9,994 nucleotides of DNA, taken from IMG/VR virus record IMGVR_UViG_2541047778_000017; one strand, written 5' to 3'. A program made the position numbers and the translations under genes. This document shows, one piece after another, positions 421 to 8,862 of the stretch. Positions within the stretch are counted from its first letter, which is position 1; each line of letters opens with the position of its first letter. The notes under the pieces are model-generated. The model made no database searches. It had not been told where the DNA came from and saw only the letters and a list, made by a program, of their open reading frames with translations. This DNA comes from a virus. Its lineage: Duplodnaviria > Heunggongvirae > Uroviricota > Caudoviricetes.

Positions 421-459
421 ACAACAGGAATTGTTTCGGTATAACTTCTGGAGTTTTCT

Positions 460-633
460 ATGGAAGATCAAAAAGCAACCAAGCCACAGCTTAAGTTCGA
501 CACAATGAAAGCATTCGCAGGTATGGGGGCTGCTGTTGAAGTTCTGATGAAGGCTGCTCCTAATGCGTTCACTCACGCTACTGTCTCTGGTAAAGAGCAG
601 CAGGGTAAGCTTCGTCGTCGCAAAGCAGCATGA
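460..633 (+). CDS. small protein, 57 aa (MEDQKATKPQLKFDTMKAFAGMGAAVEVLMKAAPNAFTHATVSGKEQQGKLRRRKAA), unknown function
   Basis: Not in the ORF track (below its length cut-off). ATG at 460 preceded by GGAG at 450-453 with 6-nt spacing; TGA at 631-633; intrinsic terminator follows within 20 nt. Basic C-terminal tail. Confidence 0.45.
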   Translation: MEDQKATKPQLKFDTMKAFAGMGAAVEVLMKAAPNAFTHATVSGKEQQGKLRRRKAA

Positions 634-651
634 TCATAGCTGGTGCTTTTT

Positions 652-680
652 GAAAACCCGCCTTTAGGCGGGTTTTTTCT
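652..680. terminator. bidirectional rho-independent terminator between convergent transcription units
   Basis: AAAACCCGCC-TTTA-GGCGGGTTTTTT: GC-rich stem flanked by an A-run on the 5' side and a T-run on the 3' side, so it can terminate transcripts from either strand. It sits right after the stops of the 57-aa ORF (plus) and the PrtN-like ORF (minus). Confidence 0.7.
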
Positions 681-962
681 TTAGTGATGTTCTTTGCCCT
701 TCTGTTTGCCTGTTCTGACCTGTTCCCACTCGATACGTCCTTCTTCTCGTCTTTTGTCTATGTATTCCGCAAGATCCTGAATATTGATGCAACGTTTTGC
801 TTTTTGTGATGTGCCGATGCGATATGTTGGAACGGGCAACTTACAAGCGTTTGCTTTTGCTTCTGCTGTGGCTGGACTCATACCAAAGTACTTTTGGCTA
901 ACTGCTGAGAGTTCAATGTTTGAGGTATTGAATTCAGCCATCAGTAAAAACAAGGTGTTCAT
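681..962 (-). CDS. pyocin-activator PrtN-like small DNA-binding protein (93 aa from ATG at 962)
   Basis: N-terminus MNTLFLLMAEF... and the ...KLPVPTYRIGTSQKAKRCINIQDLAEYIDKRR block match my recollection of PrtN-family proteins. Start chosen at ATG 960-962 because GGAG lies 6 nt upstream and the longer track ORF (start 1037) would overlap the upstream gene by 35 nt. Stop TAA at 681-683. Confidence 0.5.
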   Translation of the reverse strand: MNTLFLLMAEFNTSNIELSAVSQKYFGMSPATAEAKANACKLPVPTYRIGTSQKAKRCINIQDLAEYIDKRREEGRIEWEQVRTGKQKGKEHH

Positions 963-1002
963 AAATTTCTCCATTATCCCGGCTGCACCCGAGGGTAATA
1001 TA

Positions 1003-1869
1003 TTAATTAATAGCATCTTTGCTCTGAAGTACAGCAAATGCCATTAATACCTCTAAAGTATATCGTCTATAAAACTTAACGAATCCAACATAAAAAACAT
1101 AGACGAAGAAAAAGCTAAGTAGCGTCGAAATAGAAATATAAGACACCGCCCCACCTTCTATAGCACGATAAATTAATGTTAGAAATGATATCCAAAATGT
1201 AATTACAAATACTAAACAAATATTTCTGCAAAAACCATATAATGCAACATAGTTTTGAATTTTTGTTTGATGTTGATTAGAAAATTCATAGACGTAATGA
1301 TAAGCCAATCTGAAAAGATCATCATGAAGACCTGTCCTGATGTTTAATAATTTATCGTCTATTCTGAATTTTTTTTCATAACCTTCTTTGATCATTAGCC
1401 ATGTGGTATTAGCTAATTGAAATGGCAATGATTGTGAATAACATAGTTTTTGAGTGGCGTAATCCCATGGTATTATCGGGAATAACATTACTTTGATTAT
1501 GCAGTATTTTATTTTTCTCTTTGTGTCTTCGTTCTGTTTGTCACTTGATGGTGTTAAGACGTTTTTTTTGTCATCTGATAACTTGTTAAATAGATATTCT
1601 GACGGATATTGTAATTCTTCGTTCATATATTTTTCAATAAAAAATGCGGATGTGATAGATATAAAGTGTCCAGCTATGTAAGATATGATTACTATTGAAC
1701 CATAGTTCAAAATGCCAAAGATTTGACTTTGACCTCTGAGCAATTCAGTTAAGTCAATAACAATATCTAGATCGAATGTCAAACCACAGAAATACATTAA
1801 TAGGATAAAAAAACCACCTGGTATTAAATATCCAAGAAAGTCATAGAATGAGAATGGATTTTGATTCAT
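1003..1869 (-). CDS. integral membrane protein with four predicted TM helices (288 aa), unknown family, in an AT-rich segment
   Basis: Hydrophobic stretches FYDFLGYLIPGGFFILLMYFCGL, IFGILNYGSIVIISYIAGHFISITSAFFI, YVALYGFCRNICLVFVITFWISFLTLIY and AVSYISISTLLSFFFVYVFYVGFV, with a ~125-aa hydrophilic domain between TM2 and TM3. Start chosen at ATG 1867-1869 (GGAG 9 nt upstream) rather than the TTG at 1893 used by the track. The gene and its flanks (about 1040-1975) are visibly far more AT-rich than the rest of the window. Confidence 0.65.
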   Translation of the reverse strand: MNQNPFSFYDFLGYLIPGGFFILLMYFCGLTFDLDIVIDLTELLRGQSQIFGILNYGSIVIISYIAGHFISITSAFFIEKYMNEELQYPSEYLFNKLSDDKKNVLTPSSDKQNEDTKRKIKYCIIKVMLFPIIPWDYATQKLCYSQSLPFQLANTTWLMIKEGYEKKFRIDDKLLNIRTGLHDDLFRLAYHYVYEFSNQHQTKIQNYVALYGFCRNICLVFVITFWISFLTLIYRAIEGGAVSYISISTLLSFFFVYVFYVGFVKFYRRYTLEVLMAFAVLQSKDAIN

Positions 1870-1977
1870 TGTTGCTCTCCAATAATTTTTCAATTTGTAA
1901 TATAACCTATATCTATATGTTAATAAATTACTTATATGTTCTTTTATGGCAGAGTTTGAATTCGTACGTGCTGATTT

Positions 1978-2502
1978 TTACGACTCAGTTAACTCTTTAA
2001 AGCGTTCCATAAACATCCCATAGGCATGGCCTGGCGACAGTGGAATAACTTTGAACATCTCTGTTGCCGGGATACCTTCCAGTACAGGCCAGAAAGAGCC
2101 ATCATCAAGCCCGAGATCGCGGCGTTCGGTTGCCAGCATGATGAGATCGGCATATTTCACAGGCGTGCTCATAACCGTGGGTAACCCGTATTTCTCACGG
2201 ATTACGGCGTCTATTTTTTCTTCCATCCGTTTATAGTCAGGAAGAAGGCGTTTCAGCGGCGTGGGGATGTCCTGGCAATACGCTTCTGTTGCATCATGCA
2301 TTAACGCTTCAAAAGCAAATTCCTGCGGCACCAGCTGGCTGCAAAGCACCGCATGTTGGGCGACACTGTAGAAGTGTGAAAGATGACCGGCAAAGCGACA
2401 GATATTTGAAAGGGAAACCGCGATATCGTTAATCACGATGTCGTCTTTATTTATCCTGTCATAATAAAAATGCTTCCCGGAAAAAGTTTTAATAAATGAC
2501 AT
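1978..2502 (-). CDS. yfdR: HD-domain phosphohydrolase, YfdR-like (174 aa)
   Basis: HD signature present (RFAGHLSHFYSVAQHAV ... LMHDATEAY). Sequence and length match my recollection of CPS-53 YfdR. Start at ATG 2500-2502 with GGAG 6-9 nt upstream (the track start at 2532 adds 10 residues without an RBS). Confidence 0.7.
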   Translation of the reverse strand: MSFIKTFSGKHFYYDRINKDDIVINDIAVSLSNICRFAGHLSHFYSVAQHAVLCSQLVPQEFAFEALMHDATEAYCQDIPTPLKRLLPDYKRMEEKIDAVIREKYGLPTVMSTPVKYADLIMLATERRDLGLDDGSFWPVLEGIPATEMFKVIPLSPGHAYGMFMERFKELTES

Positions 2503-3882: not shown

Positions 3883-3930
3883 TTTGCTGCTCCTCATCAT
3901 ATCGACCCTGCAAGGTCGGTTGGTTTCTCC

Positions 3931-4066
3931 ACAAAACAGAGAAGAACACCTGCGGTGGCAGCCGCCCGGATGGATTGGGTTATGAGCCCGTCGTCCGGTG
4001 ATGCTCTTCTCTGTTTTGTAAAAAGAGCGGTACCAGCCGGAAGCAAGTGTACAAACTGGTACCGCC
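3931..4066 (-). other. two adjacent perfect inverted repeats (candidate RNA stem-loops) in the leader of the leftward operon
   Basis: Hairpin A: ACAAAACAGAGAAGA (3931-3945) pairs perfectly with TCTTCTCTGTTTTGT (4005-4019), a 15-bp stem enclosing a 59-nt GC-rich loop. Hairpin B: GCGGTACCAG (4027-4036) pairs with CTGGTACCGC (4057-4066), a 10-bp stem with a 20-nt loop. They lie 49-185 nt upstream of the yfdP-like start codon; no plausible ORF overlaps them. Confidence 0.35.
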
Positions 4067-4496
4067 AAAGCAGTGGCTGTTGTGGTGACCGGTGCTGATC
4101 TCCGGCTTGCGGTTATTTCAGACTCTCACGGGCGTTTAATTGCCCCGCCGAACAGCTCTTTTCCGCAATAGCTGCAATGTCTTTCGCGCATCAGCCTGCG
4201 CATTCACCACAACGCTGAGAGCACTTAGCCAGTTACGGCACCACACTTTGTCGCGGTTCCATAAATGCCCTCATCGTTGCACCCTGGTCTCTTCCCAGGT
4301 GTCAAACCGAACCGCCACGCTGGTTAGGCGTCTTATCAGCATCATCATTGACTTGCACATTCCGGCTACCTGGTTTGTTTGCCCGAGCAAGGAGTGGATT
4401 GTCCCCTTTAACATCCCCAGACCGCTAACGACGCATGTGCCATACGCCGTGTTACAACCAAATTTTGTTAGTACCTTGTTTGTAGGTCTGGAAAGA

Positions 4497-4548
4497 AAGA
4501 TAAAATGAAGTTGCGTATTATGCAAGTGTTTTATTGCGAGATATGCAA
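4497..4548 (-). promoter_or_regulatory. candidate leftward early promoter with two operator-like sites (pL/OL analogue)
   Basis: Two near-identical 15-bp sites, TTGCGTATTATGCAA (4511-4525) and TTGCGAGATATGCAA (4534-4548), resemble TTGCGCGTTAAGCAA in the cI-cro intergenic region. On the minus strand, TTGCAT (-35, complement of 4520-4525), a 17-nt spacer and TATCTT (-10, complement of 4497-4502) would start transcription near 4489 heading toward the yfdP-like operon. Confidence 0.3.
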
Positions 4549-4560
4549 TTTGGTGGGTAA

Positions 4561-4586
4561 TGAAAAGCCACCTTCTGGTGGCTAAT
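4561..4586 (-). terminator. rho-independent terminator downstream of the repressor gene
   Basis: Minus-strand reading AGCCACC-AGAA-GGTGGCT followed by TTTTCA, about 20 nt after the repressor stop at 4605-4607. Confidence 0.55.
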
Positions 4587-4604
4587 TGATGTTGAGGTAG
4601 GGGG

Positions 4605-5394: not shown

Positions 5395-5655
5395 ATGCAA
5401 TCACCATTACGAAATGTGCGTAAGGCGCACGGATTTACTTTGCAGCATGTTGCTGCGGGTGTTCAGGTTAATCCAGCGACGCTGAGTCGTATTGAAAGAC
5501 TGGAACAAATTCCATCTATCGATCTTGCAGAACGTCTGGCCAATTTTTTTAAGGGTGAAATCAGCGAAATGCAGATTCTTTATCCGGCACGTTTTCAATC
5601 TAGCCAAAACCAGAATGGGTTTAAACCACAGGAACAGGAGGTAAGCCGTGGGTAA
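5395..5655 (+). CDS. Cro-like XRE-family HTH regulator (86 aa)
   Basis: HTH motif FTLQHVAAGVQVNPATLSRIERLEQIPS; GGAGG 4 nt upstream of ATG 5395; divergent from the repressor. Its 3' end overlaps the start of the next gene. Confidence 0.8.
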   Translation: MQSPLRNVRKAHGFTLQHVAAGVQVNPATLSRIERLEQIPSIDLAERLANFFKGEISEMQILYPARFQSSQNQNGFKPQEQEVSRG

Positions 5656-6205
5656 GCATCACTGGAAAGTGGAAAAACAACCTGAGTGGTACGTGAAAGC
5701 TGTCAGAAAAACTATCGCGGCATTGCCTGGGGGTTACGCTGAAGCTGCTGACTGGCTGGATGTAACAGAGAACGCTTTATTCAACCGCCTTCGTGCAGAT
5801 GGCGATCAGATTTTCCCGCTGGGATGGGCAATGATTTTGCAACGTGCTGGTGGAACTCACTTCATTGCTGACGCTGTGGCGCAGTCTGCAAATGGCGTCT
5901 TTGTGTCTCTTCCTGACGTCGAGGATGTGGACAACGCCGATATTAACCAGCGCCTGCTGGAAGTCATCGAACAGATCGGGAGTTACTCAAAGCAGATTCG
6001 TTCGGCAATCGAAGATGGGGTAGTGGAGCCACACGAGCAGACAGCAATTAATGATGAGTTGTATCTGTCAATTTCGAAGCTCCAGGAGCATGCAGCACTG
6101 GTCTACAAAATCTTCTGCGCTCCAGAAAAGAGTAACGCCCGCGAGTGTGCAGCTCCGGGCGTCGTGGCGTCGATTGCTTCTGGTTGTGGAGAAACTAACG
6201 CATGA
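5648..6205 (+). CDS. CII-like phage regulatory protein (phage 186 CII / CP76-type), 185 aa
   Basis: GTG start at 5648 with AGGAGG at 5636-5641 (6-nt spacing), overlapping the cro-like stop at 5653-5655. Position immediately after cro and overall sequence character recall the CP76-type CII family; this assignment is from memory only. Confidence 0.55.
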   Translation: MGKHHWKVEKQPEWYVKAVRKTIAALPGGYAEAADWLDVTENALFNRLRADGDQIFPLGWAMILQRAGGTHFIADAVAQSANGVFVSLPDVEDVDNADINQRLLEVIEQIGSYSKQIRSAIEDGVVEPHEQTAINDELYLSISKLQEHAALVYKIFCAPEKSNARECAAPGVVASIASGCGETNA

Positions 6206-6350
6206 ACAGTTTAACGGCAAATAACCGTTTGTCGCAACAGCTGGTGGTCAGCGTCGCTGAACACCTGTTGTTACGGCATGAATGCAGATTACCAAATCAC
6301 CTGGCTGTAAGTAACCACAGAGAACTTTACCTGACTGTGGGGGGCGAGTT

Positions 6351-6530
6351 GTGCAGGAACTTAACCGCTGGTTTCGTGACGGAAGAGGGCTTTATGTCCA
6401 TGTTATTCGTTGGGAGCCAGAAACACAGCGCGTTATCTATCTTCGCAAAGACTACCCGCATGAGTGCTTTAGTCCTTTGTGGAAATTCAGGCGTGATTTT
6501 GTTGAGTGTGAAGGACCACCAGCATATTGA
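6351..6530 (+). CDS. candidate small protein, 59 aa (VQELNRWFRDGRGLYVHVIRWEPETQRVIYLRKDYPHECFSPLWKFRRDFVECEGPPAY), GTG start
   Basis: Not in the ORF track. Alternate frame inside the long 6202..7353 ORF, bounded by TAA 6312-6314 and TGA 6528-6530. Its composition is protein-like (W, Y, mixed charge), unlike the overlapping long frame. G-rich stretch 6338-6343 could serve as an SD; a LexA-box-like palindrome lies 31 nt upstream. Confidence 0.3.
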   Translation: MQELNRWFRDGRGLYVHVIRWEPETQRVIYLRKDYPHECFSPLWKFRRDFVECEGPPAY

Positions 6531-6807
6531 TTCTGCAATTCCGGGACGTTACACTGCTCAGGCACCTTATAAAGCGGGTGCCGGGCGTGGAAACCCGAAA
6601 TTCAATATAGAGCACAACCGCGCTCATGCGGTTTTTTCGTGTCATGAGCATCGTTACGCCCAAATTATGGTGGGGCGTGCAGGGCCAACTTCGGTTGGGC
6701 CGGGTTCTATGTTGACCGGTATTTCCACCCCTGTACGTCTCACCACCTATATGGTCGTGGAAAGCCTTGGTGGTGAGTTCATTGAATTCAACATAGGGGC
6801 TGTCACC

Positions 6808-7353
6808 ATGACTACTCTCCCAACCCAATCTCACCCTGAAATCACGATTATCAATGGTCGCGTTGTTACCACATCTTTTGCAGTAGCTAATTACTTTACT
6901 AAACGGCATGAGCGGGTTTTAGATAGAATTAGAAACCTCGAATGTTCCGCTGAATTTACTGAACACAATTTTGTGTTAAGTGAATACACCGACGCATCAG
7001 GCCGCAAACTCCCTTGTTACCAAATCACCCGCGACGGTTTTGCGTTTCTTGCCATGGGCTTCACTGGTAAACGTGCTGCCCGGTTCAAAGAGGCATACAT
7101 AAATGCCTTTAACCAGATGGAAAAACTGCTTTCAAAGCCATCCACGCTGAGCGATGCCGCAGATAACGCCAGCGTGCTTTACTCCCACCTGTCGGTAATC
7201 CACAAGGTCTGGCTGCAGCAGCTTTATCCCATGTTGGCAAAAGCCGAATCCCCGCTGGCTGTAAGTCTGTATGACCGCATCAACGACGCGGCGCTACTGG
7301 CCAGTCTCATAAATTTGTCGCTGAACCCTTCAGAGGTAAGGGGGCGCAAATGA
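6808..7353 (+). CDS. Rha-family phage regulatory protein (181 aa from ATG 6808; the frame is open upstream to ATG 6202)
   Basis: MTTLPTQSHPEITIINGRVVTTSFAVANYFTKRHERVLDRIRNLECS...YQITRDGFAFLAMGFTGKRAARFKEAYINAFNQME matches my recollection of the Phage_pRha domain, which is normally N-terminal. AGGGG lies 8 nt upstream of ATG 6808. The 202 in-frame codons upstream are His/Ser/Arg/Gly-rich and poor in Asp/Lys, which argues against their being coding, although the ATG at 6202 overlaps the cII-like stop (ATGA). Confidence 0.65.
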   Translation: MTTLPTQSHPEITIINGRVVTTSFAVANYFTKRHERVLDRIRNLECSAEFTEHNFVLSEYTDASGRKLPCYQITRDGFAFLAMGFTGKRAARFKEAYINAFNQMEKLLSKPSTLSDAADNASVLYSHLSVIHKVWLQQLYPMLAKAESPLAVSLYDRINDAALLASLINLSLNPSEVRGRK

Positions 7354-7574: not shown

Positions 7575-7870
7575 ACTGTTTTCAGTTTGTGTGCGGATGT
7601 GCTTTCGATAACCCGATTCAGCGCCTGATTATGTTGCGTGTTTTGATGTCGGGTTCTTCAGACGGTGAAGGCGAGAGAGTTATTGATCATCAGGTGCTTG
7701 CTGATTTCTGCTGTTGTTCTAAGCAAGCGATATTCAGGGAAACCCTGGCACTGGAAAGAGCTGGTTATCTTCATATCCGAAAAATTGCAACGCTTACTAT
7801 TGATGCAAAAGCCAGACTACAACCTGCGCGTGGCTACACAATTCTCATGCTGCGGAAGGAGGTTGTATGA
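7571..7870 (+). CDS. hypothetical protein (99 aa), possibly winged-helix
   Basis: GTG 7571 with GGAGG 7 nt upstream; stop TGA 7868-7870 overlaps the ATG of the replication gene (ATGA). The segment VLADFCCCSKQAIFRETLALERAGYLHIRK resembles a DNA-binding helix pair. Confidence 0.5.
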   Translation: MNCFQFVCGCAFDNPIQRLIMLRVLMSGSSDGEGERVIDHQVLADFCCCSKQAIFRETLALERAGYLHIRKIATLTIDAKARLQPARGYTILMLRKEVV

Positions 7871-8862
7871 GCCGTTACGCCCCCACACCGGAAGTTATGG
7901 CTATTGGTCAAATTAATATTTCCGGCAATGTTACACCTGCGACCTGGTGGAAATATATTCGACTACCCAGTGGGCGTCCGGATGCGACGGCTATCGCTCT
8001 GCTTTCAGAGATCGTTTACTGGTACCGCCCGACAGAGGTCAGGGATGAGCACACCGGAGCGTTGCTGGGATATCGCAAGCGTTTTCAGGGCGACAAACTG
8101 CAAAGAAGCTACCAGGCGTTTGCTGAGCAGTTTGGTTTCGGGAAAAGGGAAACCGCAGATGCGCTGAAGCGTCTGCGCGATGCAGGGTTTATTACTCTGG
8201 ATTTACGCACGGTGGAAATGCTCGATGGGGTGAAATGCAGCAATATTTTGTTTGTCGGGATCAACCCACAGGCAATTGCGGCCATCACCACACCTTCTTC
8301 TGTTTCGCCAGAAAGTAACAGCAATAATGCAATCAGCGATACAGCTATTACGTTAAAACGGAACACCCCCCGACGTCATAACGGAACAGGGGATACGCCG
8401 AATGTTGATACAAATACAGAGATTACTACAGAGATTACTACAGAGATTACAACGGAGACTAAAAACACTATTGGCGCATCCGCTGACGCGTCTGCACCAG
8501 CGCGTTCTGCCAGACAGGAATATTCACCGGAATTTGAACAGGCCTGGCAGGAATATCCCAAACGTGCTGGTGGTAATTCAAAATCCGCCGCTTTTAAAGC
8601 CTGGAAAGCCCGAATCAGGGAAGGTGTGACACCCGAAACCATGCTCGACGGTGTGAAACGCTATGCCGCCTGGGTGCGTGTCTCTGGAAATACCGGTACC
8701 CAGTTCGTGAAGCAGGCGTCGACGTTCTTTGGTCCGGATCGTCATTTCGAAGAATCCTGGGAAGTTCCTGCGGTATCTGCAGTCAGACGCGAGGACCCGT
8801 ACTTCAAAGCCAGTTACGACAACGTGGACTACAGCCAGATCCCGGCAGGATTCAGGGGGTGA
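7867..8862 (+). CDS. phage replication initiation / replisome-organizer protein (O-like N-terminal DNA-binding domain, DnaD-like C-terminal domain), 331 aa
   Basis: Perfect AGGAGG 4 nt upstream of ATG 7867. N-terminal winged-helix-like region (ALKRLRDAGFITLDLRT), a low-complexity linker encoded by tandem repeats (NTEITTEITTEITTETK), and a C-terminal EFEQAWQEYPKRAGG...KAWKARI...FFGPDRHFEESWE block that matches the pattern F..W..YP.K......A...W of DnaD-like/replisome-organizer C-terminal domains as I recall it. Confidence 0.7.
   Translation: MSRYAPTPEVMAIGQINISGNVTPATWWKYIRLPSGRPDATAIALLSEIVYWYRPTEVRDEHTGALLGYRKRFQGDKLQRSYQAFAEQFGFGKRETADALKRLRDAGFITLDLRTVEMLDGVKCSNILFVGINPQAIAAITTPSSVSPESNSNNAISDTAITLKRNTPRRHNGTGDTPNVDTNTEITTEITTEITTETKNTIGASADASAPARSARQEYSPEFEQAWQEYPKRAGGNSKSAAFKAWKARIREGVTPETMLDGVKRYAAWVRVSGNTGTQFVKQASTFFGPDRHFEESWEVPAVSAVRREDPYFKASYDNVDYSQIPAGFRG
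8416..8460. repeat. tandem 12-bp repeat (ACAGAGATTACT, about 3.75 copies) inside the replication initiator gene; candidate origin iterons
   Basis: ACAGAGATTACT at 8416-8427 and 8428-8439, ACAGAGATTACA at 8440-8451, partial ACGGAGACT at 8452-8460. A separate 9-bp direct repeat AACGGAACA occurs at 8356-8364 and 8379-8387, just upstream. Confidence 0.8.

Follow-up and report, generated by a model that had tools for sequence, protein, structure and literature searches.

The subject of this report is an AT-rich gene for a 288-amino-acid (aa) membrane protein, together with the small gene that follows it at the end of the leftward operon of a lambdoid prophage. Both lie in a 9,994-nucleotide (nt) stretch of DNA from a virus of the class Caudoviricetes (IMG/VR record IMGVR_UViG_2541047778_000017), and the whole of this stretch is called the window below. 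In the reading that we favor, the membrane gene forms a single-gene cassette encoding a stand-alone prophage exclusion or defense factor at the inner membrane, and the small gene is a separate excisionase of the RdfN type. We give this composite reading about an even chance of being right. Its annotation parts are close to certain, and for the role in defense the balance is roughly even. The features on which the argument is built are as follows.

992..1982, minus strand: cassette, with borders set by alignment with phages that lack the membrane gene
1003..1869, minus strand: membrane gene (PHROG 12528), with ATG start, 288 aa, and GGAG 7 nt upstream; the actual cargo
1870..1977, minus strand: 5' spacer of the cassette, 26% GC, with a Shine-Dalgarno (SD) sequence GGAG at ~1877-1880 and a weak candidate sigma-70 promoter
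963..991, minus strand: boundary sequence of ~29 nt with the SD of the excisionase gene (xis), common to phages with unrelated xis genes
681..962, minus strand, outside the cassette: predicted rdfN-type excisionase (recombination directionality factor, RDF), 93 aa, PrtN domain

An earlier note, made from the letters of the sequence without database searches, had described a strikingly AT-rich segment at about 1040-1975. The windowed computation bore this out: in 300-nt windows, the GC content is 0.28 to 0.30 over ~1050-1950, compared with 0.45 to 0.55 on either side. For the island as a whole (1003-1977; 975 bp) it is 0.295, whereas the other 975-bp windows have a mean of 0.487 (standard deviation, 0.034; z = -5.6) and every one of them is at 0.41 or above. 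The membrane gene has a GC content of 0.300 (0.26 at third codon positions, GC3) and its 5' intergenic region one of 0.259, while the values for xis, yfdR, and the whole window are 0.426, 0.467, and 0.463, respectively. The low GC content is limited to the membrane gene and its 108-nt upstream spacer, and the 93-aa gene is ordinary for the phage. In line with what the note had proposed, a variable slot extends from yfdR to the end of the leftward operon, and the AT-rich segment is accessory cargo within it.

Alignment with phages lacking the membrane gene placed the cassette borders at 1983/1982 and 992/991, the first of them two codons before the yfdR stop. Past the second border lies the boundary sequence 963-991 (…GGTGCAGCCGGG…ATGGAGAAA…ATG), which precedes the start codons of unrelated excisionase genes in different lambdoid phages. 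Because it is common to phages with unrelated xis genes, it is likely a module-exchange or recombination joint. The hairpin in this boundary was also considered as an RNA element and was dropped, since its stability is no greater than that of shuffled sequence. In Salmonella and in E. coli S88 and H1, the homolog of the membrane gene is followed after ~40 nt by a 68-aa xis that overlaps its integrase gene; in Enterobacter and Klebsiella, it is followed at the same distance of ~40 nt by a DUF4224 xis and an integrase gene. Since the membrane gene precedes three unrelated excisionase families in these relatives, the AT-rich unit is a single-gene cassette. We conclude from the alignments that 992-1982 is a self-contained, dispensable single-gene unit with its own spacer and predicted ribosome-binding site.

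The spacer 1870-1977 is 100% identical in E. coli S88, whereas the coding sequences are 83% identical. It holds a candidate promoter with the -35 box TTTATT (1927-1922) and the -10 box TATATT (1904-1899), which are separated by 17 nt, with a score of 8/12 and an end 29 nt before the ATG. A stricter promoter scan did not call this site. Similar -10 boxes are present 29 to 39 nt upstream in the Salmonella and Enterobacter loci.

The base composition had been taken as pointing to recent acquisition, which is doubtful: alleles with a synonymous divergence (dS) of 0.54 to 0.75 fill the same slot in E. coli and Salmonella. Since dS is 0.54 to 0.75 for the membrane gene and 0.12 for the adjacent yfdR, the alleles appear to be old and reassorted, a pattern that misfits a recent import. 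The ratio of nonsynonymous to synonymous divergence (dN/dS) is 0.16 to 0.24 among the alleles of the window, S88, and Salmonella, and the two N-terminal helices are the most constrained parts. Judged by these substitution patterns, the membrane gene is real and under purifying selection, and it is, by the same measure, an old resident of the phage group whose GC content has remained persistently low.

By blastn, some allele of the gene was found in 492 of the 5,426 complete E. coli genomes (~9%). A near-identical allele is present in 24 of these genomes and a full-length, 83% identical allele in ~180, including S88, IHE3034, and an O2:K1 avian pathogenic E. coli (APEC) strain; the rest carry a more distant allele. 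Although thousands of E. coli genomes contain pieces of xis or yfdR, only 24 have the whole segment, and an "empty" yfdR-xis junction was found in none of the 5,426. Alleles are also present in prophages of Salmonella, Klebsiella, Enterobacter, and Citrobacter. Among phage records, the E. coli matches are 44 to 51% identical and belong to P2/P88-like phages. In E. coli MEI008 (locus L177, 4027-4650), the gene is cut to a 207-aa open reading frame (ORF) in cassette DNA that is 91% identical throughout. We considered this 207-aa gene as a different cargo and rejected the idea, as the DNA alignment identifies it as a shortened allele of the membrane gene, which shows that decay of the gene is possible in some lysogens.

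The second component is the 93-aa gene, which starts 40 nt past the stop of the membrane gene. The note had described a small PrtN-like gene at this distance on the same strand, and the hidden Markov model match to PF11112 (PrtN) agrees with that (E = 9.7e-23; 80.5 bits, cutoff 24.2). The PrtN-like protein had also been called a regulator, and here the evidence points elsewhere, to an excisionase: the protein matches PHROG 1300, "excisionase" (E = 3.6e-39), and the xis region of phage mEp460, whose gp25 is annotated as an excisionase, has ~96% DNA identity to window positions 447-991. Furthermore, the PF11112 protein RdfN was established as the RDF of dusA-specific integrative elements by deletion, complementation, and a mini-element assay (Durand et al.; PMC8409611), and such PF11112 genes are ubiquitous in these elements (PMC8409611). 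A sequence-profile search for solved-structure relatives of the 93-aa protein returned none.

The prophage setting also belongs to the RdfN assignment. The window represents the early region of a prophage of the lambdoid type, and in E. coli strain E2 the same DNA, at 99.8% identity, is found at the left end of a ~48-kb prophage. This prophage is flanked on the left by a 105-bp dusA 5' fragment and on the right by the integrase gene and an intact dusA. Judged from these flanks, it is a dusA-specific element of the lambdoid type. The integrase gene lies at the prophage end opposite the 93-aa gene, as expected if attP is located between int and the accessory genes on the xis side. In addition, the 93-aa gene holds the terminal position that the RDF gene torI has in K-12 CPS-53, after yfdR-yfdS-yfdT-ypdJ. 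We conclude, on the strength of family membership and position, that 681-962 is the predicted RdfN-type excisionase gene of the prophage and the last gene of its leftward operon.

The 288-aa protein had been described in the note as having four transmembrane (TM) helices and a hydrophilic domain of ~125 aa, and both hydropathy and an AlphaFold model uphold this description. The hydrophobic segments are at ~12-34, 56-78, 212-234, and 243-265, and a hydrophilic part of ~130 aa lies between TM2 and TM3. The AlphaFold2 model, built from a 110-sequence alignment, is confident and all-helical (predicted local distance difference test [pLDDT], 90.5; predicted template modeling score [pTM], 0.89). This model has no structural counterpart in the PDB, a Foldseek search against BFVD gave no match below E = 0.46, and a sequence-profile search returned no solved-structure relatives of the membrane protein. 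Residues 1-288 match positions 1-288 of 288 in phrog_12528, a phage family without an assigned function (E = 5e-161), and Pfam has no model for the family. That the protein is an inner-membrane protein without an assigned function thus stands as the note had it.

Positive-inside charge counts across the 110 members place the N terminus, the central domain (median of 18 Lys plus Arg), and the C-terminal tail in the cytoplasm. They suggest an N-in/C-in orientation in which the central helical domain of ~130 aa would be cytoplasmic. The alignment comprises sequences with 27 to 45% identity to the query. F6, Y14, Y64, G67, S74, E79, H191, R215, and K265 are invariant in it, and N4, P5, D10, H68, P89, S90, E195, H200, K203, N206, the YVALYGF block, and E273 are conserved in at least 90% of the sequences. 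By sequence position, the conserved polar residues fall where TM2, TM3, and TM4 are predicted to end on the cytoplasmic side, and in the flanking helices. H68, S74, E79, H191, E195, H200, K203, N206, R215, K265, and E273 would accordingly be placed by the topology prediction at the cytoplasmic face of the membrane, where they may form one site. Polar residues at the cytoplasmic TM ends suggest that the inner face carries a site for binding or catalysis and that the protein is not a passive periplasmic plug.

The family is large. A profile search of 1.84 billion cluster representatives (50% identity) found 946 clusters at E <= 1e-3, 212 of them at E <= 1e-30, and nearly all members are 270 to 300 aa long and align end to end. 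They come from Gammaproteobacteria, Betaproteobacteria, Deltaproteobacteria, and Bacteroidota (many from Flavobacteriia), and further ones from Firmicutes, Acidobacteria, Gemmatimonadota, and Chloroflexi. The longer members have no fused known domains, only extra helices. The "transmembrane protein" moron of the LF82 phage Perceval was also considered as a member and was set aside, as no Perceval-like record was among the phage tblastn matches.

The neighbors of family members were collected as ORFs within 3.5 kb at 152 loci (63 groups at 60% identity) and clustered by BLAST, with crude ORF calls; 121 immediately adjacent ORFs were scanned against Pfam and PADLOC, and only families shared by at least two loci were tabulated. 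No conserved partner gene was found in the 63 groups or among the 121 adjacent ORFs. Even phage integrase, the most frequent Pfam family among the 121, accounts for only 4. The ~360-aa genes downstream at two loci were considered as a shared partner and rejected, since they are unrelated to each other. The contexts include the end of the lambdoid left operon beside xis-int and the interval from dnaB to Q in a lambdoid nin region. One relative overlaps a C5 cytosine DNA methylase gene and is translationally coupled to it; other neighbors are genes for type I S subunits, type II methylases, ResIII, and PIN_8, and occasionally glycosyltransferases.

In P2/P88-like phages, a homolog with 44% identity (284 aa; E = 4e-66) lies between the portal gene gpQ and the replication gene gpA. 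This interval is the P2 anti-phage hotspot of Rousset et al. 2022 (PMC9122126). In Table S5B of that work, the cargo of rank 3, with 1,102 occurrences, is described as "1 TM in protein 1, 4 TM in protein 2" (PMC9122126), and the listed protein-2 sequence plainly belongs to the membrane family. The one-TM protein is a DUF4760 protein of 165 aa (for example at 5464-5961 in locus L013 and 3964-4461 in locus L181), and its gene is always ~40 nt before that of the P2-type homolog. DUF4760 was not a neighbor in any other lineage sampled, and none is present in the window. Perhaps it is an optional partner, or else a cargo in its own right.

Among described membrane proteins, Csx27, which accompanies Cas13b in type VI-B1 CRISPR systems as an accessory protein, gave the one reproducible signal across models. 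The PADLOC Csx27 model matches the window protein at E = 1.8e-5 (residues 6-257 on profile positions 4-182 of 206) and 82 of the 110 members, with a best value of 2.2e-10; the type VI-B companion model tm_4 matches 28 of the 110. The NCBIfam model CAS_Csx27 (NF040557) matches 19 members, the best at 2e-6, and has no match to the window protein and ten Bacteroidota members. All of these scores lie far below curated cutoffs. Every other PADLOC membrane-protein model matches at most five of the 110 members. Because Csx27 is the only signal that recurs across models, the membrane family is likely a distant homolog of Csx27 at the superfamily level, as far as profile matches can tell. The note had pointed to SieB-type proteins for comparison, and this comparison failed. 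The Pfam SieB model (PF14163) matches the window protein over residues 53-107 only (18.8 bits, threshold 26 bits; E = 1.3e-3), and any SieB match is seen in only one of the 110 members, so we regard this similarity as spurious. Exclusion of the RexAB type was likewise rejected: no RexA or RexB model was returned in the PADLOC scans, the neighbors in the window are yfdR and xis, and no neighbor is conserved in the 63 groups.

We therefore turn to the role of the protein as a prophage exclusion or defense factor. Under this reading, it would work without a partner at the inner membrane, its functional surface would be turned to the cytoplasm, and the prophage gene would shield the lysogen from foreign DNA or from further phages. 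One possibility is that it blocks or processes DNA on its way into the cytoplasm, for which SNIPE offers a precedent of a membrane-anchored, cytoplasm-facing single protein (PMC13190303); another is that some trigger makes it open or disturb the membrane in a RexB- or Csx28-like way. Expression in the lysogen might start from the weak candidate promoter of the cassette itself. The homolog in the P2 gpA-gpQ hotspot makes exclusion or defense a plausible and reasonable hypothesis. As to mechanism, a stand-alone member of the Csx27 superfamily could itself be an immune or exclusion protein that acts on incoming nucleic acid at the cytoplasmic face through its invariant His, Glu, Lys, and Arg residues; this proposal is tentative, and we rate it clearly below an even chance.

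Several points weigh against a defense role. In the accessible literature we found no functional data for any family member, and the motifs and accession numbers of the family are absent from the DefensePredictor supplements searched. DUF4760 is absent from the cloned-construct list of Rousset et al. (PMC9122126), and because it is missing from that table, the P2 cargo was apparently never tested by them. Apart from Csx27, tm_4, and a few weak PDC-M48A and PDC-S47 matches, PADLOC 2.0 returned no validated defense model, and Csx27 itself lowers Cas13b interference in E. coli and does not defend (bioRxiv 10.1101/092577). Recognizable defense genes adjoin only a minority of the members, and some members have glycosyltransferase or polysaccharide genes as neighbors, a setting just as compatible with an envelope function. 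Finally, the candidate promoter is weak by consensus, so that expression in the lysogen is putative, and the placement of the conserved residues depends on their position relative to predicted TM segments.

The note had proposed a two-gene superinfection-exclusion or abortive-infection module in which the PrtN-like protein is the regulator. The adjacency of the genes on the same strand, 40 nt apart and with a terminator after them, speaks for such a module, as does the family name of PF11112, PrtN being a transcriptional activator in Pseudomonas. The proposal did not survive the comparison of loci. The small gene is not AT-rich, the drop in GC content leaving it out; it is the predicted RDF of dusA-type elements and occurs without the membrane gene, for example in mEp460. 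The membrane gene in turn is found with unrelated xis genes, and the 40-nt spacer is boundary sequence common to phages with different xis genes. Because the membrane gene accompanies whichever excisionase the phage has, the apparent module is a positional accident, and of all explanations weighed here we consider it the least probable. A part in the phage's own lytic or lysogenic cycle, in membrane remodeling, lysis timing, or genome entry, would also agree with the same-strand position in the early-left operon and with purifying selection; we hold it to be very improbable.

More weight goes to the possibility that the protein is a lysogenic-conversion or host-fitness factor, for example a membrane enzyme or a transporter for a lipid or envelope precursor. 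The invariant His, Glu, Lys, and Arg residues beside the TM helices resemble those of an enzyme, family members are found widely in the chromosomes of non-enteric phyla, and genes for glycosyltransferases, epimerases, or WecG adjoin some of them. Envelope-modifying genes, such as gtrABC (yfdG/H/I) in CPS-53, are moreover often carried in the prophage slots beside int and xis. However, polysaccharide-gene neighbors amount to only ~3 of the 121 adjacent ORFs, the protein has no similarity to GtrA or to any Pfam or NCBIfam transporter or enzyme family and no PDB match, and the gene recurs in phage accessory and defense hotspots. We thus consider a host-fitness role rather unlikely. A Csx27-like activity, as a channel or gate for the uptake of single-stranded DNA (ssDNA) or as a damper of host nucleic-acid-targeting immunity (counter-defense), appears more doubtful still. 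The delayed-early leftward operon of lambdoid phages, in which the membrane gene lies, is a place of host-takeover genes. The remote, reproducible matches to Csx27 and tm_4 fit such an activity, as do the repression of Cas13b interference by Csx27 and the relative that overlaps the C5 methylase gene, and the Csx27 family was predicted to form ssDNA channels (Makarova et al. 2019, in the form cited in PMC7642515 and PMC11662929). On the other side, type VI-B systems are lacking in E. coli and Salmonella, no competence, ubiquitin-like, WYL, or cas13b gene was among the neighbor families shared by at least two loci, the ~125-aa insert is absent from the 206-position Csx27 profile, and ten Bacteroidota members have no NCBIfam Csx27 match.

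Two further features frame the slot occupied by the cassette and the excisionase gene.

1978..2502, minus strand: yfdR (HD-domain 5'-deoxynucleotidase), by annotation of the identical E2 locus and Pfam YfbR-like; upstream flank of the slot
652..677, both strands: intrinsic terminator for both directions, at which the leftward operon and the convergent accessory genes end

On the minus strand, the gene order is cI-like repressor, an unannotated gap, yfdP, yfdQ, yfdR, the 288-aa ORF, the 93-aa ORF, and the hairpin terminator. Past the terminator, plus-strand accessory ORFs run convergently, heading to attL. In K-12 CPS-53, the order is yfdP-yfdQ-yfdR-yfdS-yfdT-ypdJ-torI, which confirms the layout, with yfdS and yfdT after yfdR, that the note had given. 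The note had further spoken of a strong terminator at the end of the gene pair. The hairpin at 652-677 is indeed present, with 11 pairs, 6 of them G-C; "strong" is slightly generous for the leftward operon, since the T-run is TTTTTT on the plus strand and the shorter TTTT on the minus strand.

The window holds several other features of interest. At 460-633 on the plus strand, a 57-aa Lys/Ala-rich ORF is convergent with xis and uses the same bidirectional terminator; it is annotated in E2 and has ~96% DNA identity to mEp460 gp24. Between yfdP and the gene for the cI-like repressor, the ~720 nt at 3883-4604 have no annotated gene in E2 and are overlapped by mechanical ORFs only. They form the most GC-rich part of the left arm (0.52 to 0.55), and the matching interval of S88 contains a frameshifted ORF and a 170-aa plus-strand gene. 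Rfam models detected two RNAs back to back on the plus strand, isrK at 6562-6638 (61.6 bits) and the C4 antisense RNA at 6663-6750 (82.4 bits). Both fall in the 5'-terminal third of an ORF (6202-7353) that carries the annotation "Rha family phage regulatory protein", and because of this its start is probably miscalled; by these matches, the region 6562-6750 may be a c4/isrK-type antirepressor control element. The 331-aa replication-region protein encoded at 7867-8862 on the plus strand, annotated as "LvrA C-terminal domain-related", has a perfect peptide repeat, TEITTEITTEITTE, and a short in-frame tandem DNA repeat therefore lies near 8400-8450.

Part of what is described here is already known: the family is catalogued without a function as PHROG 12528 and in a supplementary table, and the wide Csx27 family has been described. 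Should the protein indeed protect lysogens, a single gene would provide a very compact membrane defense, present in ~9% of the complete E. coli genomes, including those of extraintestinal pathogenic E. coli (ExPEC) and APEC lineages such as S88, IHE3034, and APEC O1. If it is a stand-alone immunity protein of the Csx27 superfamily, it would reveal the ancestral function of Csx27 and explain both a common P2 hotspot cargo and the slot on the xis side in some lambdoid prophages. It would also be a genetically tractable, E. coli-native Csx27 relative that could help to explain how Csx27 works. We found no published test of the membrane gene or of its P2-type homolog in the accessible literature; the practical value thus lies in an abundant, compact, and apparently unassayed candidate in an E. 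coli-native context. For annotation, the label "Pyocin activator PrtN family protein" on the last gene of such prophages is better replaced by predicted excisionase (RdfN type), and the gene should not be taken for a cargo regulator.

Compared with known systems, the small gene is closest to RdfN. Both proteins are small, basic PF11112 members encoded at the element end opposite the integrase gene, and both elements are inserted in dusA. The Vibrio protein, however, has 76 aa and belongs to a mobilizable island, whereas the protein in the window has 93 aa and belongs to a lambdoid phage, its role in excision being predicted from the sequence. TorI shares the terminal position with the 93-aa gene but belongs to a different sequence family.

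For the membrane protein, the P2 cargo of DUF4760 and a four-TM protein is the nearest counterpart. Protein 2 of that cargo is homologous over its full length and has the same motifs, and both are prophage accessory genes in variable slots; they differ in that DUF4760 precedes and ParM/StbB genes follow the P2 cargo, while the gene in the window sits in another slot of a lambdoid phage and is flanked by yfdR and xis. RexB of lambda, SieB of P22 and lambda, and SieA of P22 are likewise small multi-TM inner-membrane proteins and dispensable accessory genes of lambdoid prophages. There is no sequence relationship to them, and the membrane gene in the window has no RexA-like partner and is located next to xis, not to cI or N. 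The likeness to SNIPE (PD-lambda-1), a membrane-anchored GIY-YIG nuclease that cuts phage DNA during injection (PMC13190303), is a functional analogy only, as no model of that system was returned in the PADLOC scans of the membrane family. SNIPE is a single gene whose product is constitutively membrane bound, with its working parts in the cytoplasm at the site of genome entry.

Csx27 and the membrane protein are both predicted to have four TM helices, and the match spans nearly the whole Csx27 profile. The membrane protein differs in being ~80 aa longer, with a large, putatively cytoplasmic helical insert, and in being carried by prophages of Enterobacteriaceae; neither cas13b nor a CRISPR array is nearby, and no Cas-related family was among the neighbor families shared by at least two loci. 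Csx27 reportedly belongs to an expansive family that extends outside CRISPR loci and includes a subfamily tied to DNA modification. The methylase-coupled relative found here echoes that subfamily.

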